A stretch of 63,661 nt of DNA, counting the filler, from an uncultured bacterium (lineage in GTDB: Bacteria; CAYUVA01), in assembly GCA_964448115.1 (NCBI GenBank). It is 3 parts of 3 records of this genome, joined end to end, with 100 filler letters (N's around TTAATTAATTAA, not from the genome) between each part and the next. Parts side by side here need not be neighbours in the genome. Positions count along the whole stretch, not along the records: positions 22,888 to 45,524 come from CAYUVA010000057.1; 2 more parts are not named here. One strand, written 5' to 3'. Positions 22,788-63,206 of this stretch are shown in pieces. The first letter of the stretch is position 1; the number at the start of each line of letters is the position of its first letter. The notes below the pieces were generated by a model. That model was not told the DNA's origin and did not search any database. It worked only from the letters and a program-made list of their open reading frames with translations. The translations under genes and the position numbers were made by a program.

Positions 22788-22887
22788 NNNNNNNNNNNNN
22801 NNNNNNNNNNNNNNNNNNNNNNNNNNNNNNNTTAATTAATTAANNNNNNNNNNNNNNNNNNNNNNNNNNNNNNNNNNNNNNNNNNNN
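22788..22887. other. Artificial contig-joining linker
   Basis: 44 N + TTAATTAATTAA (stops in all six frames) + 44 N = 100 nt. Confidence 0.97.
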
Positions 22888-26528: not shown

Positions 26529-28154
26529 TTATCTTTGGTTCTTCTTTTCCCTGAACATAAGGCAAGCCTCGATGAAGCTATGGAATAGGGGATGCGATTG
26601 ATATGGACGGGATTTGAATTCAGGGTGGAACTGGCAGCCAATGAAAAATGGGTGACCCGGCAGCTCGAGCATCTCCACATAGTTATCTTGCGGATTTATC
26701 CCGCTGAAGACCAGTCCTTTCTCGGTGAGCCGCTCCATGTATCGCCTGTTGAACTCGTAGCGATGTCGATGTCTCTCGAAGATCAGATCAGATCCATAGA
26801 TTTTTCTAGCCAGCGATCCCTTGGCGAGCTTTGCATAGTGTCCCCCGAGGCGCATGGTACCGCCGTACTTCTTGATTCGCTTTTGCCCCTTCATCTCCAT
26901 GATCACCTTATAGCGTGTTTTCTTATCGAACTCGGTGCTGTTTGCCTTGTGCATATTGCATTTATTGCGAGCGAACTCGATGACCGCGCACTGCATCCCC
27001 AGGCAGATTCCGAAGAAGGGTATCTTTTTCTCCCTGGCTATGCGTATAGCCTCTATCTTGCCCTCGATGCCGGTCTCACCGAAGCCGCCCGGAACCATCA
27101 ATCCATCGTATTTTAACAGCTCCTCCTTGAGTTTTTCGCCCCTTATGCGTCGTGCATTTATCCAGTGCAGCTCCACCTTAGCGTCGTTTGAGATCCCTGC
27201 ATGAGTGAACGCTTCGGTCAGGCTCTTATATGAATCCTCGAGTTGTACATACTTGCCGACTATGGCAATATCGACCCTTCGCGAGGGATTTTCGATCCTT
27301 TCGAGCATTCGTTGCCATTCATCATCCTTTTTTTGAGTGCACGGCAGATCTAAAAACTCGATCATCAGCCTTCCTAAGCCCTGCTTCTCGAAGTTCTCCG
27401 GGATGCGATAGATATTATCGACATCTATGGCGTTGATCACGCACTCCTTGCGAATGTTGCAAAACATTGCGATCTTCTCGTTCAGCTCATCTTGGAGCAT
27501 CTCTGGACAGCGAACCATCAGTATATCAGGCTGGATACCGATGCTGCGCAGAGTCGCCACGCTGTGCTGAGTAGGCTTGGTCTTGAATTCCTTTGACCAG
27601 TTGAGGAATGGGATCAAGGTCAGGTGAATATAGATTACATTCTTTTGCCCCATATCGACCCTTACCTGTCTAATTGCCTCGAGGAATGGTAGGCTTTCTA
27701 TGTCGCCCACGGTGCCGCCGATCTCGGTGATGACCACATCGTTTTCGTTGCTTAAGTCGTATATCCTTTTTTTTATCTCGTCGGTTATATGGGGGATTAT
27801 CTGAATGGTCTTACCAAGGAATTGTCCCTTGCGTTCCAGCTCGATGATCGCATTATAAACCTGCCCGGCAGTGGCATTATTGGCTTTTCTCATCTTAGCG
27901 TGGGAGAAGCGCTCATAATGCCCTAAATCCAGGTCGGTCTCTGCACCATCATCGGTAACGAAGACCTCCCCGTGTTGAAACGGACTCATGGTTCCTGGAT
28001 CCATATTCAAGTATGGATCCAGCTTCAGGAAGGTAACCTTCATCCCATATCGCTCCAAGATATTGCCAATGCAAGCACAGGCAACTCCTTTTCCCAGTCC
28101 AGAGACCACCCCCCCGGTAACGAAGATATATTTTGTCTTGGATTGCTTGGACAT
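26529..28154 (-). CDS. pyrG: CTP synthase
   Basis: KYIFVTGGVVSGLGKG, DPYLN.DPGTMSP.QHGEVFV, GICLGMQ, RHRHRYE and QFHPEF motifs. Confidence 0.98.
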   Translation of the reverse strand: MSKQSKTKYIFVTGGVVSGLGKGVACACIGNILERYGMKVTFLKLDPYLNMDPGTMSPFQHGEVFVTDDGAETDLDLGHYERFSHAKMRKANNATAGQVYNAIIELERKGQFLGKTIQIIPHITDEIKKRIYDLSNENDVVITEIGGTVGDIESLPFLEAIRQVRVDMGQKNVIYIHLTLIPFLNWSKEFKTKPTQHSVATLRSIGIQPDILMVRCPEMLQDELNEKIAMFCNIRKECVINAIDVDNIYRIPENFEKQGLGRLMIEFLDLPCTQKKDDEWQRMLERIENPSRRVDIAIVGKYVQLEDSYKSLTEAFTHAGISNDAKVELHWINARRIRGEKLKEELLKYDGLMVPGGFGETGIEGKIEAIRIAREKKIPFFGICLGMQCAVIEFARNKCNMHKANSTEFDKKTRYKVIMEMKGQKRIKKYGGTMRLGGHYAKLAKGSLARKIYGSDLIFERHRHRYEFNRRYMERLTEKGLVFSGINPQDNYVEMLELPGHPFFIGCQFHPEFKSRPYQSHPLFHSFIEACLMFREKKNQR

Positions 28155-42858: not shown

Positions 42859-42981
42859 GGAAGAAATTGGAGGATGAATTGGGGACAGCCTCGAAATGGC
42901 AAATCATCAAACCGCCCCTAAAAAGAACTAATTATTCCACCAAAACGCTGTTTTCTGGCTGTTTCTCAAAAATAATTGTCC

Positions 42982-43432
42982 AAATAGGGCATATAAACCA
43001 CCCATTCAGACCAATATTCATAGGGGTATTTTTTGAGGATCCAAGTGCCATTGCTATTTTTGAAACATCGATCTTGTAAATAGGAGCTTTGTCAAAAAAA
43101 AGATTAATGTTCCATGTGGAACATATCACTTAACTGTTTGATTTTATAGGTGGTTTTTCTCCAAATCTACATTAACGGACTCAAGTTTTAAAGCCGATTT
43201 TGGGGGGTGCTAATTCACCTATTACTTTAACTTATTGATATTAAAGAAGAAATTTTTTGTAATTTGTTTCGAGGATCCTCGATCACCAGAATACATTAAT
43301 AAAAAATCGTGCCAAAATGGCACAAAGTGAGGTTAACTTATTGATATAATTGAATATTTACATTGGATAAATAATTATCATATTGCTTATAACTTGCCGG
43401 TCGAGGGGTGCCGCTCTTAAAGATCTGCGCCA
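42982..43432 (+). repeat. Full copy of the ~450-bp dispersed non-coding element (CRISPR-leader-like)
   Basis: Colinear with 63207-63659 (offset 20225-20227 throughout). parS-like palindrome at 43108-43123, IHF consensus at 43131, 43228 and 43334, GTGCCA-AAA-TGGCAC at 43309-43323. Confidence 0.9.
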
Positions 43433-43590
43433 CCCGCCGAAGATCCCACGCAAATACCCAAAGAAAGAGGACTCATCCAAAAGCTTACATTGAGCAAAGT
43501 CGAAGGAATCTGGATGACATCAGGTGGGAAGTGAGACAACCATAATCTTGGAGAGGGCGGGGGTGAGGGGCTTTCTTTCCTCTAACACTT

Positions 43591-43890
43591 TATCACGGTA
43601 TCACTTCCTCTTTGTGCCTTTGTGCCTTTGCGTGTTCAGCTCTTTCTTTTCTGCGCCTTTGCGTGAGCGTCCTTCCTTTCTTTGCGTCTTTGCGTGATCC
43701 TCTTTCCTTTCTCCCGAAGCCTAAAGTCTATTATTGACCGCTCGCTTACGCTCACGGCTCGGTCAAATATATATTTTCCTTATTGCGATTGCGTTCTTTG
43801 CGTCTTTGCGTGATCAACTCTTTATTTCCTGCGTCTTTGCGTGAGTGTCTTGGCATGATCCTCTTTATTTCATTCATTCCTAAAGTTTAA
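43591..43890. repeat. Cluster of CTTTGCGT-type short direct repeats with an embedded inverted-ended element
   Basis: CTTTGCGTG at 43626, 43657, 43688, 43804 and 43835; TTGACCG...CGGTCAA element at 43734-43766. Confidence 0.85.
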
Positions 43891-43893
43891 GGT

Positions 43894-44913
43894 CTAAAGC
43901 CTTATCTCTGTGCAAAAGAGCAAGTATGGCTCGATAACCTCGATTCGGCTGCCATTGGTTGCCCACTGTATATCGAACAGCTCCGTGCTCGGCGCTCCGA
44001 GATACTCCCAGATCATGCTATAAAACCCCTTTTTCAGGCTTAGTTTGATGATCCTTTCATTCATGGACTCGCTTTTTATCAATATTCTGCTGCCGGCAAT
44101 GTTCACCTCGCTGCTGCCAGCGCCGCGGATTACGAAGCTGTAGTTGCCATCGGCTGGGATCAGTATATCTGCCCTGGCTACGATCGCCAGCATCTCGTCC
44201 TCAGCCGACTTGTAGTCTCCTGGCGAGAAAGCCCAGGTCGGCAAGGTATCGTGGAGGGTCTCGCTTTTGATCGCTGAACGAGCTGCCAGCGAGACTCCGT
44301 GCTGGTTATTGAATATCGCCCTTGGGATGAGCAGCGCCTGGTAGTATCTTGTGCCTTTGTGTTCGATGTACTGGTGATTCGCACCGGGAAAAGCCTTGCG
44401 GAGGCGTTTTAGCGAGGCGGTCTGTTTGGCATCTAAATCACTTATCACCGCAATGCCTTTTTTCAGCTCAGGCTGGTGAAGGATGGTAAGTATATCATCG
44501 GTTGTGGTGATGCTGTGAATCGGCAATCCGAGCCGTGAGCGTGAGCGAGCGGTCAAATACTTGGGGAGTCGGCTGGCATCGATATTGAGCAAGTATATCT
44601 TGTAGTCGGGTGCCAGGCGCTCTATTGCCTCACCAAGTGTTTTTCGCGCCAGCGCGGCATCTCGATCCCCACAGGCGACGATTGCAATGCCGACAGCTAT
44701 AATCGCAACCAAGGCAAGTAGGGGCGATTGATTATTCGCCCCTACGGTCCCCTCTCCATCTGGGAGAGGGCTAGGGTGAGGGAGGAAAGACACACCCCTA
44801 AATCCCCTCTTGATAGAAGGGACTTTTCGGAGCATCCCCTCTTGAGAGGGGTGGCTCGCCTCCCGACTTTGTCGGGACGGGGTGGGTAATTCCTGCCCTA
44901 TCCATTCAATCAT
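43894..44913 (-). CDS. Putative lipoprotein with a C-terminal PA14-like beta domain; start uncertain
   Basis: Hydrophobic stretch plus lipobox-like IVA-C; C-terminal PADGNYSF..G..S.V.I.G...L.KG.Y....EY...W. The ATG at 44913 is preceded by AAGGAAGGA. Confidence 0.6.
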   Translation of the reverse strand: MIEWIGQELPTPSRQSREASHPSQEGMLRKVPSIKRGFRGVSFLPHPSPLPDGEGTVGANNQSPLLALVAIIAVGIAIVACGDRDAALARKTLGEAIERLAPDYKIYLLNIDASRLPKYLTARSRSRLGLPIHSITTTDDILTILHQPELKKGIAVISDLDAKQTASLKRLRKAFPGANHQYIEHKGTRYYQALLIPRAIFNNQHGVSLAARSAIKSETLHDTLPTWAFSPGDYKSAEDEMLAIVARADILIPADGNYSFVIRGAGSSEVNIAGSRILIKSESMNERIIKLSLKKGFYSMIWEYLGAPSTELFDIQWATNGSRIEVIEPYLLFCTEIRL

Positions 44914-45015
44914 GTCCGTCCTTCCTTTCATGCCCGTCCTCCGCATGCCATACCCATTTACCCCCTGTCATTCCCGTGCCCCCCTTCTGTCATTCCCGTG
45001 CAGGCGGGAATCCAG
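44718..45015. repeat. Stack of several unrelated REP-like palindromic repeats
   Basis: GTAGGGGCGA-N8-TCGCCCCTAC (44718-45); CCCTCTCC-N5-GGAGAGGG-CTAGGGTGAGGG (44750-82); CCCCTAAATCCCCTCTTGATAGAAGGGACTT (44795-825); CCCCTCTTGAGAGGGG (44836-51); CCCGACTTTGTCGGG (44862-76); TGTCATTCCCGTGC twice (44966 and 44988, the second continuing AGGCGGGAATCCAG). Confidence 0.85.
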
Positions 45016-45060
45016 TCCCTATCAATGCCAACCCTATCGCAGAAATACATTCTTCAAAGT

Positions 45061-45524
45061 CTATTCACAGCCGATTTCATCGCGAAGATTGAGTAGTACA
45101 TCTAAATCCGGATGTTGGATCTTCTGTGCAAGTTCTATCGACTCATTCAGAGCAGAACAGGCATCATTAACTTTGCCCATCGCTTTAAGTACTATTGCTT
45201 TCCACCATAGATAACCCACAAGCGCAAACCAATGTTGTATTCCGATGCTTTTTTCAATGCTCTCATCAAAGCATTTCAAGGCATTATCATATTTTTTTTG
45301 TTCAAAATAGACCGCGCCGATGTTGTTGAGGCTGCCGGCGATCTCTTTTGGTATATTAAGTTTCCTATAAATCTCCAGCGCCTGGTTGTAATAGGAAAGC
45401 GCCTGGTCGTATTGACCCAAAGATTTATAGACCAAGCCGATGTTGTTGAGGCTGGTGGCGATATCCTGTGGTATATCTAGCTTCCTTCTTATCTCCAGCG
45501 CCTGGTTGTAATAGGATAGCGCCT
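45061..45524 (-). CDS. C-terminal fragment of a TPR-repeat protein (5' part lost at the contig end)
   Basis: 40-aa repeats (ALSYYNQALEI..KL.IP..IA.SLNNIG.VY) encoded by 120-bp near-direct repeats; the frame is open up to the N linker. Confidence 0.85.
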
Positions 45525-45624
45525 NNNNNNNNNNNNNNNNNNNNNNNNNNNNNNNNNNNNNNNNNNNNTTAATTAATTAANNNNNNNNNNNNNNNNNNNN
45601 NNNNNNNNNNNNNNNNNNNNNNNN
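45525..45624. other. Artificial contig-joining linker
   Basis: 44 N + TTAATTAATTAA + 44 N. Confidence 0.97.
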
Positions 45625-45676
45625 AGGCGATTTCTAACAGCATCACAATGCGAATTAAATCAATTCTTCAGAGCTG

Positions 45677-45763
45677 TTCTTCTTGATTATGATCTAACGA
45701 AGAATTCCCTTCATCGTTGACAAAGACCCTGAGAGATTTAGAGAGCAGGGGCTTTGAGAACCC
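45677..45763 (-). repeat. ~87-bp hairpin-containing repeat, inverted partner of 54948-55033
   Basis: Aligns with the reverse complement of 54948-55033 at roughly 80-85% by eye; contains a CAAAG.CCCTG...CAGGGGCTTTG stem; lies 3' of the IS256 remnant. Confidence 0.8.
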
Positions 45764-45797
45764 ACTACTCATTATTCCTATAAAATCTTAATTTTAC

Positions 45798-46163
45798 TTA
45801 CATACCTTGAGAAACCTCCTGCAAGATATTATCACCTAATAATCCCATATCCAGGTAACGCCTGCCACTTACCCATTCATCGCTTATGTCCATAACCACA
45901 GATGTGCATAACCTTATACACGATGCCTCGTTGGCAAAGATCCAAATAACCCTACCGCGTCTCTTGATCTCCTGGTGAACTCGCTCTAAGCAATTAGTGC
46001 TCCTAATACGCTTTCTATGCTCTTTGGGAAAACTGTAACATGAAAGAGTCTCTTCGCCATCAACTTCTAGCTTGTTTGCAAGCCTAGGCAATATCTCACC
46101 ATACTTATCAACAAGACCATAAATCCGTGATATAGCAAGAACCTGCCTCATCGAGAGGTTCAA
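45798..46163 (-). pseudogene. IS256 (Mutator)-family transposase, C-terminal remnant
   Basis: FPKEHRKRIRSTN.LER..QEIKRR.RV..IF.NEASC.RL and W..GRRYLDM are typical of IS256 C-termini; the N-terminal part, including the first catalytic aspartates, is missing. Confidence 0.88.
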
Positions 46164-46260
46164 GGGCTTACAAGGATCACAATTTCACTTTCGCACCAAT
46201 AAAGCAGTGGGATACAGCCTTTGGCTTCGCGTCTTTTTCACCTCTGAGCCAGCCTTGGGG

Positions 46261-49200
46261 CTAGTCGCATGTTTCATCACACCCGATATCCGCCGAACCT
46301 CCGCCGCAGGGTCTCGTATCTCCCTCGAAGTCATCCGAAGGATAGCCTAGCCATTCCCATGCGGCTCCTCTTGCCGGCGAGTCAGGCTTTAGCCTTATCC
46401 ATCCATAAGCATCGGCGTAAACCTTCGGATCCTCCCGGATTGCGTGATAATGGTCTCCCTCGTAGTCGGAAGGAGTGGGTGCATCTGTCTTTGGCTCCAA
46501 GAAGTTATTGATGAATTGGATGTCGTGCGAAGCATAAGGAGATACATACACCTGGTCGGAAAGACTTAAGTTGATTACACTTTTGAATTTGAACTTCCTA
46601 CGGTTGCCATAAAAGATGTTGTGATAAGCATCTCCAGAACAATCTTCGGTTCTCAGTCCGGCTCCAGTTGCTGTAACCAATCCGGTGACAAAGGTCATGT
46701 GTGTCTCATTTTCCCAAACCGTTGAGTTTCTCAGCGTAAAATTACAGTTCTTCAGATAAAGACCGCCTCCCCTGCTCCATAAATACAGCGCTGCATATCT
46801 CTTGACTGCAACACGGGGGTCTTTTCCTAGATTTGCATAGAAGCAGTCGTTCTCCAGGTAGCAATCAGCCCCTTCCGAATATAGACCGCCTCCCTTCTTC
46901 CACACCCTGTTTTTATAGAACAACGATTTTCTCACCGTAACGCCATCCTCGCTCAAGTAGATGCCTCCCCCGTGGTGGAGAGCAAGGTTGTCGTAGAAAA
47001 CGCAATTCTCCACCGAGATCTGGCTTCCTCCCAGCTTGGCTCCACCTCCGTAACCTCCACCAAACATCCACAGGAAGAATGGCGGTTCGAGTCGCCCGCT
47101 AGAGTTGCCGTGGAAACGACAGTCATGAATAAGCAGCGGCTCCTCCGTTTCCGCCCATAATCCGCCTCCCCTATCAGCAGCGTAGTTCACCCTGAACACG
47201 CAATTCTCTATTACTCCACCGCCTCCCTGCACTAACATTCCCCCGCCGTCTGCCGTAGGTGTCTGTCCATTATTAAGCGCCACATTCGCTTTTATATGGG
47301 TATCCTTCAGTGTGAAAGTGCTGTAGGCGGAGTAAATGCCTCCGCCTTCGTCATAGGCGCGATTGTGAGGATCGGGTGTGTTGTCTCCGATGTTCGTTCC
47401 GCCCTCTATAATATCAACTACATCGTAGTCTTCAGACCTCTCCGGATTGTCGTCGCGCATAAGTCCAATTTCGCAATTATCAACTGTCCAATTGGAATTC
47501 TCGAAGTAAAGGGCGCCTCCCTGCTGCATTGCCGTGTTCTCAGTAAACCAGCAGTTCTTGATCTCCGCTTCTCCGTCCTTCACATAAACTGCGCCGCCCT
47601 TGTTGGCAACACAACTCCTAATTTCGGAGTTCAACAAGACAAGACTTGCGTTATCCACCCTAATGCCGCCTCCGATACCGCTGCTCCCGCTTAAGATACG
47701 AAATCCGTCAAGCCCAGCAGGATAATGGGAGAAGTTCTCCAGCCTGAAGATGTTGGTTTGAAGATTGGCGTTATAATATACATAGTTATCAGGGTCATCT
47801 ACCTCTATATAGGAACTCTCCCTCAGATAGATAGGAAATGAAGAAGGATCAGCGTAAGTTCCCAGCACGCTTATCCTGTGGGTTTCTGAACGAATGTCAG
47901 CAAGAGCGTCCTCTATGGACGAGAAATCGTATGCGGGATATGGGTCTGGACCTATCCAAAGATAATCGGAAAATTCGTATGCTCCCATATCGGGGATTCT
48001 CCTTGCGGGGACTCTATGCTGGAACGGTCGCTGAGCTCCCGTAAAATCTTCAGTGAGAGAACTGCAAAACTGTACTGCGTCAATGCAGGGAGATACAGGA
48101 CGCAACCGCAGGTCTCCGGCGAAATCCATCATGAACCATGGGTTCTTGTCCATATTATGATCCAGGGCATCGCCATACCCTCCCTCCACCAGGGAACAAG
48201 ATATCTCCGGCATCTGGGCGCTGGTGGGATATGCCACCTCGTTGGGTATGTCTCCCCACATAATGGAGTTGTATATGCTTCCCCTCGGGGCATCATTGTA
48301 TAGCGCTCCACCATTGCTTGCTTCGTTTCCGTTGAAGGTACAATGTGTGAAAGAGTAACCGGCAAGAGCGGTAACAAAACTATAAACCGCTCCTCCGTGG
48401 TGGTCGGCTGCGTTTCTCCAGAAGACAAGGTTCTCAAAATCATAATATCCCCACCACAAGAAGAGCGCTCCGCCGGAAGCGCAGGAATGATTTTCCCGGA
48501 ACTCGCATCGCTTCATGTCCAGGTGAGCCGAGGTCTCCGCCGAGGCGTGAGCATAGATCGCCCCGCCGTTGTCCGAAGCGCTGTTCCCGGTGAAGACGCT
48601 CCTTTCTACACTAGCAAAGCTGTTCCAATAGTATGCTGCTCCGCCGAACCCGCCGTGGTTGTCCTGGAAGGCGCATTCATAGACCTCTGAACCGCCAGAG
48701 TAGTCGGCGAGCGCCCCGCCAGCGCTGGAGTTGTTCGAGGTGAAGGTGCAGTCCCTTATCACCGGGTCCCCGTACTGGTTGGCAAGCGCCCCGCCGGTTT
48801 TCGCATCATTGTATTCGAAATTGCAATTCTCGATAACCGGGTCTCCAGCGTAGTTGAATATTGCGCCCCCATAAGTAGTTGTACCGGTTCTTCTCGCCTT
48901 GTTGTAAAGGAATTCGCAATCCCTGACCGTGATCTCCGAGTTGCTTATATACAGGGCTGCCCCGTTGGCGTTATACAGGAAGCCGTACATGATTCGCAGC
49001 CCTTGAATGGTGGTGTTCAGGTCATGGATCCCTACCGCCTTGAATAAGGGCGCCCCGATGGCTTGCGAGGGATGCCCCTGGATGGTGGGCTTGGTGGAGG
49101 TATGGCTCATCAGTTTCACGCCCGGCACCAGTTCCATCGGTATATTCTCGTTGAACCAATAATAGGTTCCATCAGCTACGACATGGATAGTCTTTCGCTG

Positions 49201-52200
49201 GTCAGCCCCGGATCGAACCGCATCCAGCGCCTCGGAAATGGTGCGATAATCCGCGTTGCTCCAGGTGCGCGCCACCAGGATATAATCCGGGGTCGGGGTC
49301 GGGGTGGGTGTATTGGTCGGGGTTGCTGTCGCAGTTGGGGTCGGCGTGGGTGGCGGTTGTGAGAGGGAATAATGCACCAGGACAACATCCTTGCCTCCCG
49401 AATGCGGTTTCCCGGCGATGCTGCTTCCGGCATACCCCGTTATGTAGAACTCGCCGCTTCCAACGAATGTTACCGCCTTGCCGACATCGGAGCCTTCTGA
49501 ACCCACGAGATGTGTACAGAGCCTGACGCCATCCGAAAGCCTGAATCTCATAATGAAGATGTCGCTGCAATATCCCGATGCCGGGCTCTCCCCGTCTATA
49601 GAGCCGCTGACCTTACCAGTTATCACTGCTGTATTTTGATCGGCGACCGCGATGCCGAAAGCCTTGTCCTCGTAATTGGCGGGTCCCGATGTATATGCCT
49701 GATTCCACACCATGTTGCCGTCGGCTGAATACTTCAGGATGAGGAGATCACCTGCATGTTCCCTTTGGCTGTCCTCTCTCGAACTCGTCCATCCGCTTAT
49801 GTAAACCGAGCCATCAGCATCCAGGTCCACCCCAGTTCCCTCCTCATCGAAAGGAAGCCCGTACTGCCTGAGCCAGGTTAGGTTTCCGTCCAGGTTTACC
49901 TTGGCCAAGTAGAGGTCGGACATCCCGCTATTGCCGGCTCCTCCGAGATCACCCTTGGTAAAGCCGGTTAGGTATGCCACGCCCTCGGGGTCATTCACCA
50001 CCAGGTCGTAAGGTTCGTCGTCAGCAGAAGAGCCTAACAGCTTGGTCCAAATATTATTTCCACTGGAGGTGAACTTCCTGATAAAGATATCTCTTCCGCC
50101 GGCGGAGGCGAGTCCGTCCATCGTACCGGTCATGTAGCCTACGACATAGATATTGTCGCTTCCATCGGCAGCCACCGCTCGCCCCTCCACGCGGTCAGAA
50201 CCGGCGAAGTTGACTCTCCATTGCAGATTGCCCGCGGTATCATAAGCGCCAAGAAAGCCTTGCGGGTTGTGTATGCCCAAAGTGTAATCTACTCCTGTTA
50301 CATACATGGCGTCATTCGCGCTATTAAGGGTAATCCCCTCGCATCTCGCATCATCCCAGGTGACCATCCATCTCAGTTGCTGATCAGGGCTGTAGCTGGC
50401 AATCAAGGCGTCATCCCCGTAAACACCCGCAAGGTAGCTGTTTTTAACCGAGTCCGCGGTAACATCGCTTCCCCAGTCTGTCCAGGAGGTGCCAAGCATG
50501 TTGACCGCGTAAAAGGCTTCCTCCGGCTCGCACTTCGGTGTCGGGGTAGGAGTCGGCGTCGGCGGCAACGGCGTCGGCGTGAAGTAATCGGAGGACTCGC
50601 GAATCAGGAAGTTGCTCCCCCCCACCGAACCGCAGACCTTCAGGAAAGCGGTGCAGTAACCATGAGAAGCGACGCCGACGCTCATCTCCGAGGCTTCGTG
50701 CCCAGAAGCATTGCCCCTCAGCCATTGAAGGGTTCCGTTGCGATCATAAAGGGCGAGATACCAATCCTCCCAGCCGTGATTCATATACCCCTCCGCGTCT
50801 CCATATAGGCTTCCACTCAAGAACACATGACCGCTTGCATCAACCGAAGTAGAGTAGGCATAGACCTTATGGTCATAATCCTGGCTGCCGGCTAGGAACC
50901 TTGTCCATTGCAAGTCGCCATGCAGGTTGTACTTGGCCAAGAACGCCGCCGGCATACAATCGACTCCTTGCGCGGTAGTCATGGTAAATCCGCACAGATA
51001 AAGCTCGTTCCGGGTGTTGTCCACATCGATCCCATAACCACGCTCTTCCATCCCGTCGCAAAGAGTACAGGACCCCGAACAACCGAGATCGCTCAAGACA
51101 TTCATCCATTGAAAGCAGCCCTCGGCATTGTATTTCGCAATTACGATATCCTCGCTGCCGTCTCCAGCAAAGTTTTCCGTATATCCCGCCATGTAGATGA
51201 AACCAGAGGCGTCAACACAAATATCCAGGGGGACAACATACTCCGGATTGCCAGCCAGGGATGGCAGTATCTCCCATAACAAGACGCCGTCGGGAGAGTA
51301 CTTAGCCAGGACTCCGAGCTGAGCGCCAACCACTATATCTCCCTGGGGAGTTACAGCTACCGCAGTGCCTAACTGGGTTTGGAAAAAGGTCTCCGGCAGG
51401 TACCTTATCCATTGAAGCTCCAAAGCGTTGTTATACTTGGCTAGGAAAGCGTCCTTGCCGTTTTGATGGGTTGCCCCTCCAAGGCTCCCCTCGGTCCAGC
51501 CGACTATGTATATCTCGTTGGGGGACGCGATAGAAACCGCCACGCCCTGATCGTGCTGAGGACTTCCGAGGAGTCTCTCGTTGAGTTTGTTTCCGTCGGA
51601 GTCGAACTTCGAGATTACGACATCCGATTTGCCCACTGTCTCCTCGAAATCGGTGTCCTCCGAGGTACTACTCACGACATATACGAACCCGTCGGGAGAA
51701 ACAGCCACTCCCCTGCCTACATTCAGGTGGTTGGCGGTAAGGGATCGGGTCCAGATATCTGAGCAATCCGCTACCGTCGGGACAGGAGTCCTCGTGGGGG
51801 TGGGAGTGGGGGTTACTTCCACCCCGCATAGACGCAGATCATCAATGTTCCAACCGATGTGCCCCGTGTACATGTTTTTCATGTCGGAGGTAGGACCAAT
51901 ACTCCACCGGATATAGGTGGAGGCTTCATTATCGGCTGTTCTCCCCAGCGGCACCTCGAAATCCGTCCAGGAGGTGTCGCATCTCTCCAGCATACCATCT
52001 AGCCGGGGATAGGCGTTGTCCCAGACGGTCTCCCAAAAGCTTCCGTCTGCCGAGACATCTATCCTTGCGAAATGCAACGAATCCTCTATGGATGGAAGTC
52101 CGATCCACGCCTTGAAGGACAATACTATGTCATAGTAATCGCTACAGTTGATGGGGGATGTCGTTAGAGTATATATGTTGGAATCAGGATTGGCGTATAA

Positions 52201-54600
52201 ACCATCGTAGCTTAAATCATAGCCGTAAACAAAGCTACCGCTGTACGCCGAGTTAGGATCGTAGCAATCCGATTGACCGCCTCCCTTGCCTTGGGGAGCG
52301 TTAAACTCCCATTCACCATTCATCGTCCAGCCTGGGTCGCTGTCGAGGTTCTCGGAGAAGAAACAGATGGTTGGAATGGGGGTGGGTGTCGAAGTGGGCG
52401 TAGGGGTGGGAGTAGGCGGGATGGTGGTGAATTTCGAGAAGAAGATGTCTTGACCCCCCTTGTTGACGCCGCCGAGATCGCCGTATGTATAACCAGCCAG
52501 GAACGCCTCGCCCATGGCGTTGACGGCGATGGCGCAACATTTTTCGTTCTCGCCCGTTCCCAGCAATCCGGTGCAGACACGCGTACCGTCCAGGGTGAAG
52601 CGTGCTATGAATGCGTCCTTAGCCCCATTGTTAGGCTTCGCGTCCAGGTCTCCCTCGGTAAAGCCTCCCACGAATAGTCTTCCGCCCCCTATGCCAATTG
52701 ACTTACCCCATTCAGCATGGCTTGTTCCAAAGATTCTAGTCCAGGTTACATTGCCATCCATAGAGAATCTACATGCAAATGCATCGGTTTCTCCATGGGC
52801 GCTTTCTCCCAAGAAGCCGCCTTGGCTGAAACCAGCAAGGTAAGGATTGCCTCCCGCATCCAACGCAATGGCGAGTGCCCTGTCATCCTGGGGACTCCCG
52901 AAGAGATTGCCCCATACAAGATTTCCATCAGCGTTCAACTTGATCAGGAAGGCGTCCTCTCCACCGCTGTTGATTTCTTCCAAAAGATCGCCCCGGCTGC
53001 CTCCGCACAAGTAGAGATAACCGGAACTGTCCGCCGTTATTCCGGTCGCCTCCTCCGAGGAGGCAGTCCCGAACAGCTTTACCCACAACAGGGAGCCATT
53101 GTTGGAGACGCAAGCTACGAAAATGTCCTTTTCGCCGGCGTTCTGCACATTGTCGAGATCGCCCCAAGTATATCCGGCAAGGAAGATCCGTGAGCCGAAA
53201 GCTGTAACACAACGTGCTTCTTCGTCCTTGTTCGTCCCGAGCAAGAGGCTCCACTGGAGGTCTCCTGCCTGGCCATATTTAAGTAAAAAGGCATCCCTAG
53301 CGCCGTTATTGGCATTGCCTGCGAGGTCTCCCTCCGTGTAGCCGACGAGGAGTAGGTTGTTGTATTGATCCACCGCGCTTGCGAGGGCTTCTTCGTTGGA
53401 GGCAGTCCCTGTCATAAGTGTCCAGAGCTTTTGGGCATCGCTATTGAACTTGGTTATAAAGATATCCTTTCCCCCCTGGTGAGGCTGATCCTCGATAGAG
53501 GTCGAGGCGCCGCCCGCCAGGTAGATAAAGTCGTCCGCAGAGATGGAGAGGGCTAAGCCTAAGTCGTCGAGATACATCCCGTACTGGCTGGTCAGGTAAA
53601 AACCCTCGTTCGCAACGCAGGCAAGGGTGGGGGTAAAGGTGGCGGTAGGGGTATTGCTAGGAGTCGGGGTTATGCTGGGCGTGGGAGAACTCGTGGAGGT
53701 ATTAGTGGGAGAGGGAGTGTTGGTCGGGCTCCAAACCGAGAAGATCATTTGGTGACTATTCTCCTCACCGGCGGTATGAGAGGAGTCGAATATCCTGACA
53801 TAGACATCCGAAGGGTCTGGCATACCGCTCGGAAGCGTTATAGCCAGGCAATCCCCTGAAATATTCCCGCAATAAGAGCTATACAAGAGCACCCTGTTCT
53901 CATCGGCGATGGGGTCCTCGTAATAATACGCCTGCATGTTGAGATCGAGGCTTGGGGATATGTTGGTCATCTCGAAATTGTAGGTATAGGATGGATGGGC
54001 GGAAAACTTGAACCAATCCTCGTCATCGGAACTGCACAGGTAATTAGTTAGCGGGGTATCCGGCGGAAAGGCGTCGAGGTTGACGGCTTGCGAAGCATGA
54101 TCATTGGATTCATAGTCATCCCTATCGAGGCAAGAGAGGGGATCAAGAAGAATAAGAGGTATGGTGGTAGTAGGCTCCGTTATCTCCACGGGTTGTAAAT
54201 CCTTCCGGTAGTAACCTGGAGCTGAGGCTGTCAAGCGATAAGTACCGGCAGGGATATCGCCAAGAGAGTAGTTTCCGCTCGCATCGGTGATCGTCTCTCC
54301 TATGATCGCTGCGTAGGCAAGTCCTATTACCACGAGTGCTGGCGCGAGAAAAACGAGAAAGTACTTCATGCTGTACCTGGATCGCCAGAATAGATAAGTC
54401 AGGGTAGCAAGCAACAATAGCGCCCCGAGCAAGGTAAAACTCGGAACGGTGAAGGTTGTATCGAGGCTTATGGTTATGCCCGCGTGACCAGATGGATCAG
54501 CCACATCGGAGTATTGGGCTACGCCATTTACAGTTGCTCCTCGCGCATTCGATATCAAAAGAAAAGCAGTGAAAAGACAAATAAATAATGCTCTTTTCAT
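46261..54600 (-). CDS. Giant (~2780 aa) secreted multidomain surface protein: carboxypeptidase-regulatory-like domain, PPC-like domain, three SBBP beta-propellers, jelly-roll-like domain and two right-handed beta-helix regions, separated by Pro/Thr linkers
   Basis: Signal peptide MKR..ARGA after a GGAGG RBS (ATG 54600); TDASGNY..G.Y.L.A...GY; DDYE.ND..D.DWF; repeated D.F..K....G...W....G...D; five PTPT linkers; GGA(I/L/V)Y and FxxN repeats; L.L...SPCIDA...DMGAYEF. Confidence 0.88.
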   Translation of the reverse strand: MKRALFICLFTAFLLISNARGATVNGVAQYSDVADPSGHAGITISLDTTFTVPSFTLLGALLLLATLTYLFWRSRYSMKYFLVFLAPALVVIGLAYAAIIGETITDASGNYSLGDIPAGTYRLTASAPGYYRKDLQPVEITEPTTTIPLILLDPLSCLDRDDYESNDHASQAVNLDAFPPDTPLTNYLCSSDDEDWFKFSAHPSYTYNFEMTNISPSLDLNMQAYYYEDPIADENRVLLYSSYCGNISGDCLAITLPSGMPDPSDVYVRIFDSSHTAGEENSHQMIFSVWSPTNTPSPTNTSTSSPTPSITPTPSNTPTATFTPTLACVANEGFYLTSQYGMYLDDLGLALSISADDFIYLAGGASTSIEDQPHQGGKDIFITKFNSDAQKLWTLMTGTASNEEALASAVDQYNNLLLVGYTEGDLAGNANNGARDAFLLKYGQAGDLQWSLLLGTNKDEEARCVTAFGSRIFLAGYTWGDLDNVQNAGEKDIFVACVSNNGSLLWVKLFGTASSEEATGITADSSGYLYLCGGSRGDLLEEINSGGEDAFLIKLNADGNLVWGNLFGSPQDDRALAIALDAGGNPYLAGFSQGGFLGESAHGETDAFACRFSMDGNVTWTRIFGTSHAEWGKSIGIGGGRLFVGGFTEGDLDAKPNNGAKDAFIARFTLDGTRVCTGLLGTGENEKCCAIAVNAMGEAFLAGYTYGDLGGVNKGGQDIFFSKFTTIPPTPTPTPTSTPTPIPTICFFSENLDSDPGWTMNGEWEFNAPQGKGGGQSDCYDPNSAYSGSFVYGYDLSYDGLYANPDSNIYTLTTSPINCSDYYDIVLSFKAWIGLPSIEDSLHFARIDVSADGSFWETVWDNAYPRLDGMLERCDTSWTDFEVPLGRTADNEASTYIRWSIGPTSDMKNMYTGHIGWNIDDLRLCGVEVTPTPTPTRTPVPTVADCSDIWTRSLTANHLNVGRGVAVSPDGFVYVVSSTSEDTDFEETVGKSDVVISKFDSDGNKLNERLLGSPQHDQGVAVSIASPNEIYIVGWTEGSLGGATHQNGKDAFLAKYNNALELQWIRYLPETFFQTQLGTAVAVTPQGDIVVGAQLGVLAKYSPDGVLLWEILPSLAGNPEYVVPLDICVDASGFIYMAGYTENFAGDGSEDIVIAKYNAEGCFQWMNVLSDLGCSGSCTLCDGMEERGYGIDVDNTRNELYLCGFTMTTAQGVDCMPAAFLAKYNLHGDLQWTRFLAGSQDYDHKVYAYSTSVDASGHVFLSGSLYGDAEGYMNHGWEDWYLALYDRNGTLQWLRGNASGHEASEMSVGVASHGYCTAFLKVCGSVGGSNFLIRESSDYFTPTPLPPTPTPTPTPKCEPEEAFYAVNMLGTSWTDWGSDVTADSVKNSYLAGVYGDDALIASYSPDQQLRWMVTWDDARCEGITLNSANDAMYVTGVDYTLGIHNPQGFLGAYDTAGNLQWRVNFAGSDRVEGRAVAADGSDNIYVVGYMTGTMDGLASAGGRDIFIRKFTSSGNNIWTKLLGSSADDEPYDLVVNDPEGVAYLTGFTKGDLGGAGNSGMSDLYLAKVNLDGNLTWLRQYGLPFDEEGTGVDLDADGSVYISGWTSSREDSQREHAGDLLILKYSADGNMVWNQAYTSGPANYEDKAFGIAVADQNTAVITGKVSGSIDGESPASGYCSDIFIMRFRLSDGVRLCTHLVGSEGSDVGKAVTFVGSGEFYITGYAGSSIAGKPHSGGKDVVLVHYSLSQPPPTPTPTATATPTNTPTPTPTPDYILVARTWSNADYRTISEALDAVRSGADQRKTIHVVADGTYYWFNENIPMELVPGVKLMSHTSTKPTIQGHPSQAIGAPLFKAVGIHDLNTTIQGLRIMYGFLYNANGAALYISNSEITVRDCEFLYNKARRTGTTTYGGAIFNYAGDPVIENCNFEYNDAKTGGALANQYGDPVIRDCTFTSNNSSAGGALADYSGGSEVYECAFQDNHGGFGGAAYYWNSFASVERSVFTGNSASDNGGAIYAHASAETSAHLDMKRCEFRENHSCASGGALFLWWGYYDFENLVFWRNAADHHGGAVYSFVTALAGYSFTHCTFNGNEASNGGALYNDAPRGSIYNSIMWGDIPNEVAYPTSAQMPEISCSLVEGGYGDALDHNMDKNPWFMMDFAGDLRLRPVSPCIDAVQFCSSLTEDFTGAQRPFQHRVPARRIPDMGAYEFSDYLWIGPDPYPAYDFSSIEDALADIRSETHRISVLGTYADPSSFPIYLRESSYIEVDDPDNYVYYNANLQTNIFRLENFSHYPAGLDGFRILSGSSGIGGGIRVDNASLVLLNSEIRSCVANKGGAVYVKDGEAEIKNCWFTENTAMQQGGALYFENSNWTVDNCEIGLMRDDNPERSEDYDVVDIIEGGTNIGDNTPDPHNRAYDEGGGIYSAYSTFTLKDTHIKANVALNNGQTPTADGGGMLVQGGGGVIENCVFRVNYAADRGGGLWAETEEPLLIHDCRFHGNSSGRLEPPFFLWMFGGGYGGGAKLGGSQISVENCVFYDNLALHHGGGIYLSEDGVTVRKSLFYKNRVWKKGGGLYSEGADCYLENDCFYANLGKDPRVAVKRYAALYLWSRGGGLYLKNCNFTLRNSTVWENETHMTFVTGLVTATGAGLRTEDCSGDAYHNIFYGNRRKFKFKSVINLSLSDQVYVSPYASHDIQFINNFLEPKTDAPTPSDYEGDHYHAIREDPKVYADAYGWIRLKPDSPARGAAWEWLGYPSDDFEGDTRPCGGGSADIGCDETCD

Positions 54601-54642
54601 GAGAATCCTCCCTCTCATTCAAGCCTTACGCACAACAATCCA

Positions 54643-54676
54643 GGAGGAATCCTTTTTGAAAAAAGGCTTATCCTCC
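54643..54676. repeat. Imperfect palindrome upstream of the giant gene
   Basis: GGAGGA-AT-CCTTTTT-GA-AAAAAGG-CTTA-TCCTCC. Confidence 0.5.
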
Positions 54677-54947
54677 CAAATCTCCAGGTATGTTTTCCAT
54701 ACTTACTTTTCTTGAGACCAATTCAACGCTCCTAAAGGATAGTAAACTCTACAATCTCGATGACTCCAAGGGTGGAGACAACTTATTTTCCAAGTAACCG
54801 TTCACAGTTAAATAATACTATAACACCATATAACCCGTCAAGCTAAAGGTTCGTAATCGTTTTTTAATTCCGACATAAGAAATGAAAATATACCTGGGAG
54901 GTTAGTTGAGAGCAAAATATTTCGGACAGAGCTGGGGTTGTTCTGGG

Positions 54948-55111
54948 GGGTTTCGCAAAGCCCCTGTTCCAAAGCTCGCAGGGGCTTTGTTAACGATGAA
55001 TGGTATTCTTCGTCAGAGCATAACCAAGAAGAAATTACCTCTTGACATCAGCAATAGGATCATGTGGTGTTCAATCAGGATGACGAAATTACAGAAAATA
55101 TCGGACAGAAC
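54948..55111 (+). mobile_element. Probable IS end remnant: second copy of the ~87-bp repeat followed by an IS256-like terminal sequence
   Basis: Repeat at 54948-55033 with a perfect 11-bp stem CAAAGCCCCTG/CAGGGGCTTTG, then AAATTACAGAAAATATCGGACAGAAC (55086-55111), which resembles IS256-family ends as I recall them. Confidence 0.5.
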
Positions 55112-55121
55112 TTCAACCTGT

Positions 55122-55150
55122 TTGACAGGAGATGATTTTAAGATTAAACT
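55122..55150 (+). promoter_or_regulatory. sigma70 promoter positioned for a leaderless transcript
   Basis: TTGACA-N17-TAAACT, then 6 nt, then the ATG at 55157; no Shine-Dalgarno sequence. Confidence 0.65.
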
Positions 55151-55156
55151 AGTAAT

Positions 55157-57352
55157 ATGAATTTTCAAAGGAACGCACTGGCCATAACTTTAGTTTCAAT
55201 TGCTATTACCTATACATTTATCTGCCTGGCTTACGCCGAGTTCGAGGTGTTATGCGAGCTTAATGTAGGCGGCAGAGGTTACAGCGATGTTGCGGTCGAT
55301 CAAGATTATATCTACCTATGTAGCCAGGAGGGATTCCTGGAGGTCTTCACCAGGACTGAACCATTGGCTTGCGTAGGCTTCATAGACCTGAGAACTGATG
55401 ATGAAATTGATGACATGGAGATCGCCTTAGACGATGACTATGCCTATATCACCAGGGGGAATGCGGGTATATACATAGTCGATATCTCCCAGCCGTCTGC
55501 TCTAAAGGTCGTCTCCTGGATCGGCGCGCAGTACGCTGACGGTTGTTTTATCAGGGATGATCATCTTTTTGTCTGCAATGAAATGTTGCTATCTATATTC
55601 GATGTTTGTGATCGATCATCTCCGAGCCTACTAAGCGCCATAGCCTTCGATTACTGGACAGAGAATGTAGCTGTTACCGGGGATTATGCTTATGTAGTCG
55701 GCTCTCCGGCAGGGCTTTTCATCGTAGATATCTCCGATATAACCGAGCCGGTGATCGTAAACCATCTATTCGAGTACACCGGCATCTGCTCGCTTCAGAT
55801 CGAGGATGGATTGGCATATCTATGTACGGTAATTCAACCGCCGATTGTGCTAGATATCAGGGATGATCCAGCGTATCCGCAAGTCTTATATCATTCCACA
55901 GAATCGGTTGAGGAAGAACATAATGAACTAACGTATGCGGATGGCTATGTATTTATCGCCGATGAAGAAGGTCTAAAGATCTACGATGCCACGGATCCAT
56001 CAAACCTGGATCTTATACTCACCGAACACGAGGAGCTAAGCTTTAGCCTCAGCGTTGCCGCCGGGGATGGAGAGCTATTTTTTTCGAGTAAAAATTCTGG
56101 TTACTTCAGGATATTTAATTACCTGACGCTTCCCGATGCCCTTCAGGAGCTGGCTACTTATCGAAATCCTAGCGGCATCCTACAAATAGGGCTTAGCGAA
56201 GACTATCTAGTGATTCTCGACAGCACATGGCAGGTTTCAGTCTCAGTCTATGACATAAGCGATCCAACCATGCCAGTTAACCTGAGTAGAACCGAGTTGA
56301 CCGAATCTATACACCCATACATGTCTGTAGATCAGGGTCGCGTGGCTATCGTAACCGAGGATAAATTGTCTCTTTATCAGATCACAGCGCAGGGGACTTT
56401 GTCCGAGACTTTCAGCACCACTTATTATAATTACATTCCTTGCTGTTATCTGAGGAGGGATTATCTTATCGCTAATCATTATTGGGATGAAACAAAAAAT
56501 ATTGATGTTTTTTATGTTGAAGATTTTTCAGCTCCTGAATTGGTGCTACAGTTTAAGGCAGCACATGGCCAAGTATTTCTTGGTTATTTGAATCATGATA
56601 TTTACTATATTCTAGAGCCGTCCTTGTTAAATCAGCATTATTTGAACATAATAAATGTATCGGATCCAAGCAATATTCTTTATAAAGCCATTAACATAGG
56701 ACAACTTTATCCCATGTATTTATTGACCGATATGATGGTAAACAATCAATTTTTATATATAGGTACCACTTATGGGGGGATTCAATTGTATAACCTTGAT
56801 GATCCCATGTCCCCCGAATATATGAACGATATCGATGTCGATCTGTGGGTCAATGAGTTTGCTCTGGTTGGAGAGGACATATATCTAGTTAGTGGCCATA
56901 CTGAGGGAGATAATTATGGCATTTATTTGATGGATCTAAGCCAGCAGGGATTTCCGATTGTTCTAACAAGCCAGAAAGGCATATACCGTTATCTCGAAGT
57001 CAAAGACGATATTGCGATCACCGGCGATGAGAAGCATTTGCATATCCTGCGCATTCCGCTGCCAGAGCCTAATATTCACATCGGTGGCTACTTGGATACA
57101 AACCTTGAGGCTGCAACTGGCGGGAAGCTGCGTATTTTCGGGCTTGCACCAAATGGATTGAAGATCATCCGCGATATCAGACTGCTCGATAGCAGTTATA
57201 GTCCAATCGGCATTAGCCTGGACAACGGGTATAGAGAATTTTACATACCACCCGGTATGGTTCCACCAGGCAATTACCTGCTGTTGCTGCAAGCTTATGA
57301 CACCATGGGGCGTACAAGTTGTCCCTTCCCCTATCTTTGCGTGGGGGAATGA
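55157..57352 (+). CDS. Secreted LVIVD-repeat (beta-propeller) protein with a distinct C-terminal domain
   Basis: Signal peptide ending AYA; repeated YAY(I/V)....GL.IVDIS.P units; acidic composition. Confidence 0.85.
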   Translation: MNFQRNALAITLVSIAITYTFICLAYAEFEVLCELNVGGRGYSDVAVDQDYIYLCSQEGFLEVFTRTEPLACVGFIDLRTDDEIDDMEIALDDDYAYITRGNAGIYIVDISQPSALKVVSWIGAQYADGCFIRDDHLFVCNEMLLSIFDVCDRSSPSLLSAIAFDYWTENVAVTGDYAYVVGSPAGLFIVDISDITEPVIVNHLFEYTGICSLQIEDGLAYLCTVIQPPIVLDIRDDPAYPQVLYHSTESVEEEHNELTYADGYVFIADEEGLKIYDATDPSNLDLILTEHEELSFSLSVAAGDGELFFSSKNSGYFRIFNYLTLPDALQELATYRNPSGILQIGLSEDYLVILDSTWQVSVSVYDISDPTMPVNLSRTELTESIHPYMSVDQGRVAIVTEDKLSLYQITAQGTLSETFSTTYYNYIPCCYLRRDYLIANHYWDETKNIDVFYVEDFSAPELVLQFKAAHGQVFLGYLNHDIYYILEPSLLNQHYLNIINVSDPSNILYKAINIGQLYPMYLLTDMMVNNQFLYIGTTYGGIQLYNLDDPMSPEYMNDIDVDLWVNEFALVGEDIYLVSGHTEGDNYGIYLMDLSQQGFPIVLTSQKGIYRYLEVKDDIAITGDEKHLHILRIPLPEPNIHIGGYLDTNLEAATGGKLRIFGLAPNGLKIIRDIRLLDSSYSPIGISLDNGYREFYIPPGMVPPGNYLLLLQAYDTMGRTSCPFPYLCVGE

Positions 57353-57370
57353 GATATCCATGCGGATAAG

Positions 57371-57720
57371 TTAATGTCGCTTCTTGCCGGCACGCGAAAG
57401 CCATAGCGTCCAGATAAATCCAAAGAACAAAAGTATCCCGCCAAGTATGAACAATTGCCTGGTGATGTCTATCTGAGGTAGATCCAATGCCCGGCTTCCG
57501 CTCGCTGCGCTGGTAGCCGTCGCCAGGATGAATATGGCAAGCTCGGTTGAAAATACTCTTTCCCTCATATCGGCTCTCACCGAAACCATCAGCAACCGGG
57601 TAGTGAATACCCACCTGATGCCATTACCGATGCCTCGAAGCAATATGCCTGAAAGCACGATCGCGAAGCTGGACATGGTCGAGATCACCAATAATCCGAA
57701 TACTGAGATGATACATGAGA
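57371..57720 (-). pseudogene. C-terminal fragment of an MFS transporter
   Basis: Only about four TMs with RG.G.G..WVF...LL...V....R.RVF; no credible N-terminal half or start. Confidence 0.55.
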
Positions 57721-57813
57721 TGGAGCGGTCAGAGAATAAAGAAGCCAGATATGCTCGACATCTTTCACAACGATGGTTCCATCTGATAAGGATTTGTTGA
57801 TGATAAAGGCTTT

Positions 57814-58578
57814 TCAGATACACGATAGCAGTTCTTTGAACCTGTCCGCCGAGGCGGGGCTGTAGCCCTCGTAGTGATTGTTAAAGAAGCCATAGACCCT
57901 CAAGCCCATCTTTAGATATTCGTTCACCATCTTAGACCAGTATTTAAGATCCCCTAGTCGATCTTTCTTGATTCTATCAAATGGCGGTTTCAGTCCCCTG
58001 ATATCCCCAAGCCACCTTATGTAAACGAAATCAGCCTTCATATCGCGAGGCAGGCTGCTTATCCTGGGCATCCAGGGATGATCGACCAGGCAGTAGGTCA
58101 TATTGTCTCGATCGCATAGCCTTTGTATGCCATGCGGTATCCAGTTCTTGTTGCGAACCTCGATGACATACTCCAATGAATCGGGCAGTTGATCTAAAAA
58201 GTTTTTGAGTAAATCTTTCTTCGAGGGGGAGAATTTATAAGGGAACTGAAATAATATGCATCCAAGTTTTTCATTTAAGTTTCTTGCGATCCCTAAAAAT
58301 TGATGTAATACGCCCTGACAATCGACTAGTTGCTTATCGTGGGTGATGATACGAGGAGCCTTGAGACAAAAGATAAAGCCAGGCGGAGTGATCTCATACC
58401 ATCGTTTAAGGCTCTGTGCTTTGGGGATTGCATAGAATGTGCTATCCACCTCGACAGCATTGTATCTCTTGGCGTAATAAAGAAGGAATTCGCCGGCTTT
58501 GGTGCCCTTTGGATAGAATACTTGCAGCCACTCCTTATAGCTCCATCCAGAGGTACCTATGAATAGCTGATCATCCAT
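57814..58578 (-). CDS. DUF72 (YecE-like) protein
   Basis: IGTSGWSY..W...FYP, VE.DSTFY, KAPR.ITH, LFQFP, E.R...W, Y.RW.G and FFNNH..G motifs. Confidence 0.92.
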   Translation of the reverse strand: MDDQLFIGTSGWSYKEWLQVFYPKGTKAGEFLLYYAKRYNAVEVDSTFYAIPKAQSLKRWYEITPPGFIFCLKAPRIITHDKQLVDCQGVLHQFLGIARNLNEKLGCILFQFPYKFSPSKKDLLKNFLDQLPDSLEYVIEVRNKNWIPHGIQRLCDRDNMTYCLVDHPWMPRISSLPRDMKADFVYIRWLGDIRGLKPPFDRIKKDRLGDLKYWSKMVNEYLKMGLRVYGFFNNHYEGYSPASADRFKELLSCI

Positions 58579-58640
58579 GATCTTTATATTACTCAATTCT
58601 CGTTGCAATTTCCAAAGGGTTTGAGCCTTCCAAAACTCGC

Positions 58641-58686
58641 TATCACGGTATCTTTCATCTTTGGGTCCTTGCTTCTTTGCGTGATC
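58641..58686. repeat. Isolated copy of the repeat unit at 43591-43637
   Basis: TATCACGGTATC..TTC.TCTTTG.G.C.TTG...CTTTGCGTG.TC is shared between the two loci. Confidence 0.65.
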
Positions 58687-58708
58687 TTTTTACTTGTAAA
58701 ATATGTTC

Positions 58709-58737
58709 TTGACATTAGGACATTGGTATTATAAGTT
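58709..58737 (+). promoter_or_regulatory. Putative sigma70 promoter of the TPR gene
   Basis: TTGACA-N17-TAAGTT. Confidence 0.5.
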
Positions 58738-58814
58738 AATGAAGTGCAAATATGGCTATGTAAAAAATGCATGGCAGATCTAGTGAGCATTATGAATAAA
58801 ATAGAGAGCATGAC

Positions 58815-60881: not shown

Positions 60882-60961
60882 GCGATTTTCAGGCATACAG
60901 CAGAACTTTTGCACTTACTGAATGTTATACATATAGTCAAGATGTGCTTAGCTTAATTGAT

Positions 60962-61034
60962 GCGGGTATAACTCAGTCGGTAGAGTACAAGCTTCCCAAG
61001 CTTGGAGTCGCGGGTTCGAATCCCGTTACCCGCT
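60962..61034 (+). tRNA. tRNA-Gly (anticodon CCC), CCA not encoded
   Basis: GCGGGTA/TACCCGC acceptor stem, CAAGC-TTCCCAA-GCTTG anticodon arm, GGTTCGAATCC T-arm. Confidence 0.95.
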
Positions 61035-61068
61035 TTATTTAGGGCAACAAGTTTTACTAGCATCAGGG

Positions 61069-63048: not shown

Positions 63049-63206
63049 GTCTCAGAACTCATTACAGTCTATTATACTCTTTTCAAGTTAAGTTAGTTTT
63101 AAACTATAGTATAAATGGGATCTTTGATCATTGCTAGGGTTAATCAAAAGATGAAAATATTTGTAAAATAATACTGCTACCATTCCTGTTGGGAAGATAT
63201 ATAGTT

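Follow-up and report, generated by a model that had tools for sequence, protein, structure and literature searches.

Chromosomal parS sites, the centromere-like sites of the ParABS partition system, are usually treated as short, origin-proximal landmarks, and the classical sites do cluster near oriC. Other palindromes of the ParB family, namely the KorB operators of plasmid RK2 and the Noc sites of Bacillus, are scattered over the replicon. The parS of plasmid P1 is one compact site, and the BIME-1/RIB elements of E. coli, about 100 bp in length, are found at operon 3' ends. For chromosomal parS, Table 1 of PMC7022226 lists the consensus TGTTCCACGTGGAACA in P. aeruginosa and P. putida, a closely similar sequence, TGTTCCACGTGGAACG, in M. 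xanthus, and up to 21-22 sites on published chromosomes. Two of the other systems are described as including integration host factor (IHF): the ParB-binding architecture of P1 parS includes an IHF site (PMC2910045), and BIME-1/RIB consists of extragenic REP palindromes that flank an IHF site (PMC3333891).

The DNA analysed here, which we call the window, is a stretch of 63,661 nucleotides from an uncultured bacterium. It consists of three contigs (1-22787, 22888-45524 and 45625-63661) separated by spacers of N at 22788-22887 and 45525-45624. The housekeeping proteins that it encodes are only 48-55% identical to their best public matches, which marks the lineage as very poorly sampled. FtsZ (ftsZ, 6370-7530) reaches a top identity of 55% among the 120 best matches listed, and PyrG (pyrG, 26529-28154) is 50-54% identical to sequences from five phyla.

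We describe a repeated element in this window that belongs to a dispersed family of diverged, AT-rich, non-coding repeats, which occupy intergenic positions beside unrelated housekeeping genes. The element is multicopy, its internal spacing is kept between copies, and the block kept best of all is a palindrome close to the chromosomal parS consensus.

Results

A diverged repeat with constant spacing

A repeat search confirmed that each of the three contigs carries one copy of an AT-rich non-coding element, as a sequence-only reading of this DNA had claimed. The copies, here A, B and C, are:

42913-43445, plus strand: copy A, demonstrable extent; the sole contig-internal copy, which may continue to about 43527
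63189-63661, plus strand: copy B, which reaches the end of contig 3, with weak similarity back to about 63129
1-217, minus strand: copy C, truncated where contig 1 starts and comprising the element's first part only

The element had been described as about 450 bp long, which proved too short at both ends. It starts about 70 nt further left, where homology between A and C sets in (near 42913 in A and 217 in C, by blastn and alignment), and it extends at least 13 nt beyond TCTGCGCCA. One B-like public contig continues after TCTGCGCCA in agreement with A at 43423-43445, and a second extends 93 nt beyond 63661, which would put the limit near 43527 in A. The length is at least 533 bp, about 0.55 kb and possibly up to about 0.6 kb. 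GC content is 0.29-0.36 within copy A, compared with 0.45-0.57 in the flanks.

The copies are diverged. A and B are 86% identical in the left part (A 42982-43223 against B 63207-63448) and 75% identical further right (A 43302-43432 against B 63529-63659); C 1-167 is complementary to B 63189-63355 at 92%, and C matches A at 78% over 218 nt. Because the offset between A and B is 20225 in the first segment and 20227 in the second, the two are colinear within 2 bp, as originally noted. A MAFFT alignment of A and B contains 103 substitutions but just two gap columns in 466. By expectation, though by no formal test, this is a small number of indels for non-coding DNA so diverged. The imbalance between gaps and substitutions suggests selection on spacing, which would be unexpected in decaying relics.

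A near-consensus parS palindrome

The longest block that is invariant across all three copies in the alignment contains a 16-bp palindrome, TGTTCCATGTGGAACA. Of its 16 positions, 15 agree with the chromosomal parS consensus, and the single mismatch to TGTTCCACGTGGAACA is central. Sites within one mismatch of TGTTYCACGTGRAACA occur three times in the window, once per copy, against 0.01 expected:

43108-43123, either strand: parS-like palindrome TGTTCCATGTGGAACA in A, one mismatch to TGTTYCACGTGRAACA
63333-63348, either strand: parS-like palindrome in B, from the motif search
8-23, either strand: parS-like palindrome in C, from the motif search

The mismatch lies in the two central letters: A, B and C, like most of the depth of the public contigs, have TG there instead of the ideal CG. 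In about one-eighth of the depth aligned at 63340-63341 the centre is CA, the reverse complement of TG, and the arms are unchanged. Since the palindrome varies among the public contigs only at these two letters, and there only to their own reverse complement, the arms are kept. The CA and TG centres could have arisen by two independent transitions from an ancestral CG, or by the flip of a hairpin loop. Read on the minus strand, the palindrome leads into a T-run and is scored as a weak terminator, so it may instead act as a hairpin.

Is the TG-centred variant found in genuine parS loci? The exact 21-mer around the palindrome is widespread: many phyla are represented among the 23 genome contigs and 32 metagenome contigs that contain it, and none of these contigs has the flanks of the element. 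After duplicates were collapsed, 27 of the 47 distinct loci were found to hold further parS-like sites within a few kilobases, some of them perfect; the variant is thus a normal member of parS clusters. By contrast, an IHF consensus lies within 100 nt of the parS in only 2 of these 47 loci, so that the pairing of parS with IHF is not general and is without precedent among them.

Several features of these public loci are recorded here in their own right. Of the 32 metagenome contigs with the parS 21-mer (loci L024-L055), nine break off no more than 200 nt from it; assemblies seem to be interrupted often around parS. Six loci (L011, L027, L034, L040, L045 and L050), from a Bacteroidetes MAG and related metagenome contigs, differ in their flanks but have about 127 nt in common, including two 26-nt direct repeats that immediately precede this parS 21-mer. 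This MAG has four parS-like sites only, and one additional copy of the flank without parS. We considered it as a parallel to our element and rejected it, given the small number of sites and a repeated part that is mainly flank.

Candidate IHF sites and other conserved blocks

To the right of the palindrome, A and B share a series of further short blocks, and one of the boxes lies to its left in all three copies:

43035-43042 (A, plus strand), 63260-63267 (B, plus strand) and 89-96 (C, minus strand): first GAGGATCC box, from a motif search
43131-43144 (A) and 63356-63369 (B), plus strand: IHF-consensus site 1, TAACTGTTTGATTT, from a motif scan
43228-43241 (A) and 63454-63467 (B), plus strand: IHF-consensus site 2, TAACTTATTGATAT, from a motif scan
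43270-43281 (A) and 63497-63508 (B), either strand: 12-bp palindrome CGAGGATCCTCG with the second GAGGATCC box; B keeps 11 of 12 positions
43309-43323 (A) and 63536-63550 (B), either strand: palindrome GTGCCAAAATGGCAC, with exact matches only in A and B
43334-43347 (A) and 63561-63574 (B), plus strand: IHF-consensus site 3, TAACTTATTGATAT, from a motif scan
43380-43394, plus strand: invariant block ATATTGCTTATAACT, from the alignment
43405-43445, plus strand: conserved 3' block, consisting of GGGGTGCCGC, 8 nt, ATCTGCGCCA, 2 nt and CGCCGAAGATC, and containing TCTGCGCCA

Enrichment of the IHF-type sites is clear. The pattern TAACTNNTTGATWT has six matches in the window where shuffled controls predict 0.55, and every one is in A or B. 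The IHF consensus WATCAANNNNTTR has ten, against 2.94 in shuffled controls, and six of the ten are the sites in A and B. All six conform to this consensus and are candidate IHF binding sites. They had been called phased, and this was half right: the spacing is kept (97 and 106 bp in A, 98 and 107 bp in B), but the intervals are not whole helical turns. Intrinsic curvature was considered as well and rejected, as no helical periodicity of AA/TT was found.

The other blocks behave as first described, and the two further palindromes likewise exceed chance expectation by far. GAGGATCC is present twice in each full copy, and within the window GTGCCANNNTGGCAC is confined, without mismatch, to A and B. 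The last 40 nt are conserved despite the 75% identity of the 3' third. No sigma-70-type promoter was found to be conserved around ATATTGCTTATAACT.

More than three copies, and no repeat-spacer array

The element had been counted as present in three copies and read as, most likely, an unusually long CRISPR leader; neither statement is borne out. Contigs from three sequencing runs of one sample (X1, X2 and X3) were aligned to the end of B. They give at least six different left junctions, which correspond to A, B, C and three loose ends. Mean depth is also in excess over the element: in X1 it is 10.2 in the flank and 28-263 in the element (3-26-fold), in X2 3.4-3.7 and 11.5-25 (3-7-fold), and in X3 about 4 and 8.3 (2-fold). 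Depth adds up all organisms of the sample, so these values are to be read only as several to a few dozen copies. This range overlaps the 21-22 parS sites of some species.

The same contigs show what follows the element. One that carries a diverged copy goes on unbroken for at least 255 nt past the position equivalent to 63587, and the B-like contigs end 93-98 nt past the end of contig 3.

If the element were a CRISPR leader, each intact copy would precede an array that breaks the assembly, and A would be an orphan leader whose array has been lost. Such a reading fits the position of B and C, which stand at contig ends and point outward, and the stop of the B-like contigs where a first repeat might begin. 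The element is AT-rich and a few hundred base pairs long, as a leader would be, and IHF sites are known in leaders of types I-E and I-F; some archaea, moreover, have many arrays behind a long conserved leader. The copy that can be read through tells otherwise. No repeat-spacer array follows A in 43433-45524, where the only tandem units, 31 nt long, belong to another repeat family. The first 30 letters beyond the B-like copy match A's continuation, and the contig of the diverged copy runs on without a break. At least six copies with up to 26-fold depth would require unusually many arrays, and the window has no cas gene among ORFs scanned against Pfam. Conservation is higher in the 5' half (86%) than in the 3' third that would adjoin the supposed repeat (75%), although the last 40 nt are kept, and a consensus parS has no known role in a leader. 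We therefore regard the leader model as improbable; for B and C this judgement takes in about 30 nt beyond their ends.

Tests for a gene, an RNA or an origin

The element had also been said to contain no ORF. Strictly this is wrong, in that a 46-aa ORF exists in B and C; its point, that the DNA is non-coding, holds, because in A the ORF lacks its start and is cut short, and the differences between copies are all non-synonymous. A structured RNA gene was rejected too. Rfam gave no match at gathering score (best E-value 1.1), the fold z-scores of +0.62 and +0.84 give no signal, and among predicted pairs only 5 of 84 and 2 of 89 are changed on both sides in a comparison of two sequences only. A replication origin was likewise rejected, since matches to the DnaA box are absent from all copies.

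These results bear on a further possibility, that a multicopy transcription unit (rRNA operons or a repeated RNA gene, for example) has the element as its upstream control region and 5' leader, with the unit itself missing from the bin and A a remnant. Draft-genome contigs do often stop at rRNA operons, the polarity of the copies is fixed, the conserved 3' block is GC-richer, and GCTCTTAAAGATC in A loosely resembles a boxA antiterminator. That stretch is not kept in B, however. No rRNA or other Rfam family follows A, the fold signal is absent at 43395-43600, and the search for a conserved sigma-70-type promoter was negative. For the rRNA operons of an uncultured lineage covered about 10-fold, six or more junctions would also be a high number. 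We consider this explanation highly improbable, the least probable of those weighed here.

Searches for relatives of the element were negative in all the collections searched (genome, metagenome, plasmid, phage and viral contigs). Blastn found no similarity to it in plasmids or phages, and three block patterns had 0, 1 and 0 matches in viral contigs. The single match, L056, has only 21 nt in common with the element and was taken as chance.

Neighbouring genes and repeats

Beyond the left end of every copy, at a distance of about 80-110 nt, a divergently transcribed gene begins, in agreement with what had been noted of the orientation. These genes encode a sodium symporter (A), an asparagine synthase (B) and a C_GCAxxG_C_C protein (C). 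Elsewhere the contigs carry the dcw cell-division cluster, kdsA/kdsB/pyrG, glycosyltransferases and TPR proteins. The copies adjoin the dcw cluster, kdsA/kdsB/pyrG and asnB, which give no hint of proximity to the origin. When the ORFs of the window were scanned against Pfam, no cas, ParB, IHF or integrase gene was detected, nor any ORF with a ParB domain. The only transposase sequence in the window is the C-terminal remnant of an IS256-family (Mutator) enzyme at the start of contig 3 (45801-46184, minus strand; Pfam PF00872, E = 8.4e-19), and it has no similarity to the element.

Other repeats are present in these intergenic regions. A second short repeat family, at 43589-43850 and 58640-58690, has a TATCACGGTATC head followed by units of the CTTTGCGTGA type; it makes the 31-nt tandem units after copy A, and one copy of it precedes the TPR gene at 58815. 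Inside the 3' extension of the element, at 43446-43462, a diverged unit of this family is found in inverted orientation. A GC-rich, REP-like unit, GGAGAGGGCGGGGGTGAGGGG, follows copy A at 43550-43575. A related copy of it at 44758-44782 falls inside the 5' part of a 350-aa ORF; the true start of this ORF is probably further downstream, at a lipoprotein-type signal. The 350-aa protein has no match in the Protein Atlas.

The element could alternatively derive from a mobile element, as its relic, as a non-autonomous form of it or as its long non-coding end; transposition or recombination would have spread the copies, from which the host would gain no function. The palindromes and direct repeats would then be sites for a recombinase and accessory proteins, or hairpins. 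Diverged copies (75-92% identity) at unrelated intergenic places, each about 80-110 nt in front of a divergent gene, would suit such an origin. So would a copy on each of the three window contigs, contigs that break at or inside copies, and the patchwork of other repeats after A. In addition, the 3' block, with its 38 nt from GGGG to AAG, may resemble Tn3-family inverted repeats in its layout. The absence of terminal inverted repeats, as first reported, nevertheless stands: within the window there is no inverted partner for the left end or for the 3' block, and a Tn3-type inverted repeat was rejected on this ground. No transposase or integrase adjoins any copy in the window, no match exists in plasmids, phages or viral contigs, and two gap columns against 103 substitutions suggest selection on spacing. 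We judge a mobile origin rather unlikely, though clearly possible.

Discussion

What, then, does the element do? The sequence-only reading had spoken of a selected nucleoprotein platform, and this part of it gains support: the conserved blocks look like protein sites, the spacing between them is kept, and signals of an RNA or a coding function are lacking. Our tentative best explanation, to which we give slightly less than even confidence, is a dispersed repeat that works as a nucleoprotein platform of the ParB/IHF type. Binding by ParB-family proteins and by IHF, like the platform function itself, is what we infer from the motifs.

In such a platform, a CTP clamp of the ParB family, whether the host ParB or a paralogue resembling Noc or KorB, would load at the palindrome. 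The three IHF-consensus sites would bend the DNA, and the two other palindromes may bind further factors. Taken together, clamp loading, bends and further factors lead us to propose that each copy could assemble a defined nucleoprotein complex. As a family, the repeats would scatter ParB docking sites across the chromosome rather than serve one locus.

A bolder version can be formulated, which we think unlikely. The element would be a half-kilobase 'centromere cassette', composed of parS, three IHF bends and two further operators, that spreads ParB docking sites in a deep-branching uncultured bacterium; ParB or a paralogue would then act genome-wide, upstream of many promoters, and not only at the origin. 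We know of no such dispersed parS cassette described for a chromosome. A literature search on parS in repetitive elements returned nothing on the topic among titles and the opening parts of abstracts, and publication elsewhere is possible. Even without the bolder version, a family of long repeats that each bear a parS and regularly placed IHF-type sites would mean that centromere sites can be multiplied and moved within a larger module, and that a clamp of the ParB family may have an organising or regulatory part at many loci of a lineage without close relatives. A practical lesson holds in any case: where conserved, AT-rich non-coding DNA recurs at contig ends, a CRISPR leader should not be assumed until an array is seen.

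Comparison with known systems

Chromosomal parS of the ParABS system is matched in the 16-bp palindrome (15 of 16 positions) and in the 21-mer, which is the same as in genuine parS clusters. The known sites differ in being short and near oriC, and they have not been described as belonging to a longer repeat, here about 0.55 kb, that also has IHF sites. The P1 parS offers another likeness, as a partition site with an IHF site in its ParB-binding architecture. P1, however, uses the A-box and B-box repeats of a plasmid-type ParB, whereas the element has a palindrome of the chromosomal type and, after it, IHF-type sites at intervals of about 100 bp. The KorB and Noc sites may be compared with the element in that a ParB-family palindrome is scattered rather than clustered. 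They are bare palindromes of 13-16 bp with sequences of their own, whereas here the chromosomal parS sequence is found inside a long repeat.

BIME-1/RIB resembles the element as a dispersed intergenic repeat that joins palindromes with an IHF site. It is built from inverted REP pairs and a single IHF site; the element has three IHF-type sites and other palindromes, including parS. Each IHF-type site here is preceded by a different palindrome instead of being flanked by an inverted pair, which sets the element apart from BIME-1/RIB. The element is also about five times longer and lies upstream of divergent genes. With CRISPR leaders of types I-E and I-F it shares its AT-rich, non-coding character, conservation between copies in one genome and IHF sites. 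It departs from them in having a readable copy without an array, too many copies, a window without cas, and a nearest IHF-type site at least 86 bp from the proposed leader end.

By this comparison, the element would work most like a chromosomal parS, to which the logic of BIME-1/RIB and of the P1 centromere appears to have been added, while by defining features it would be a member of none of these classes.
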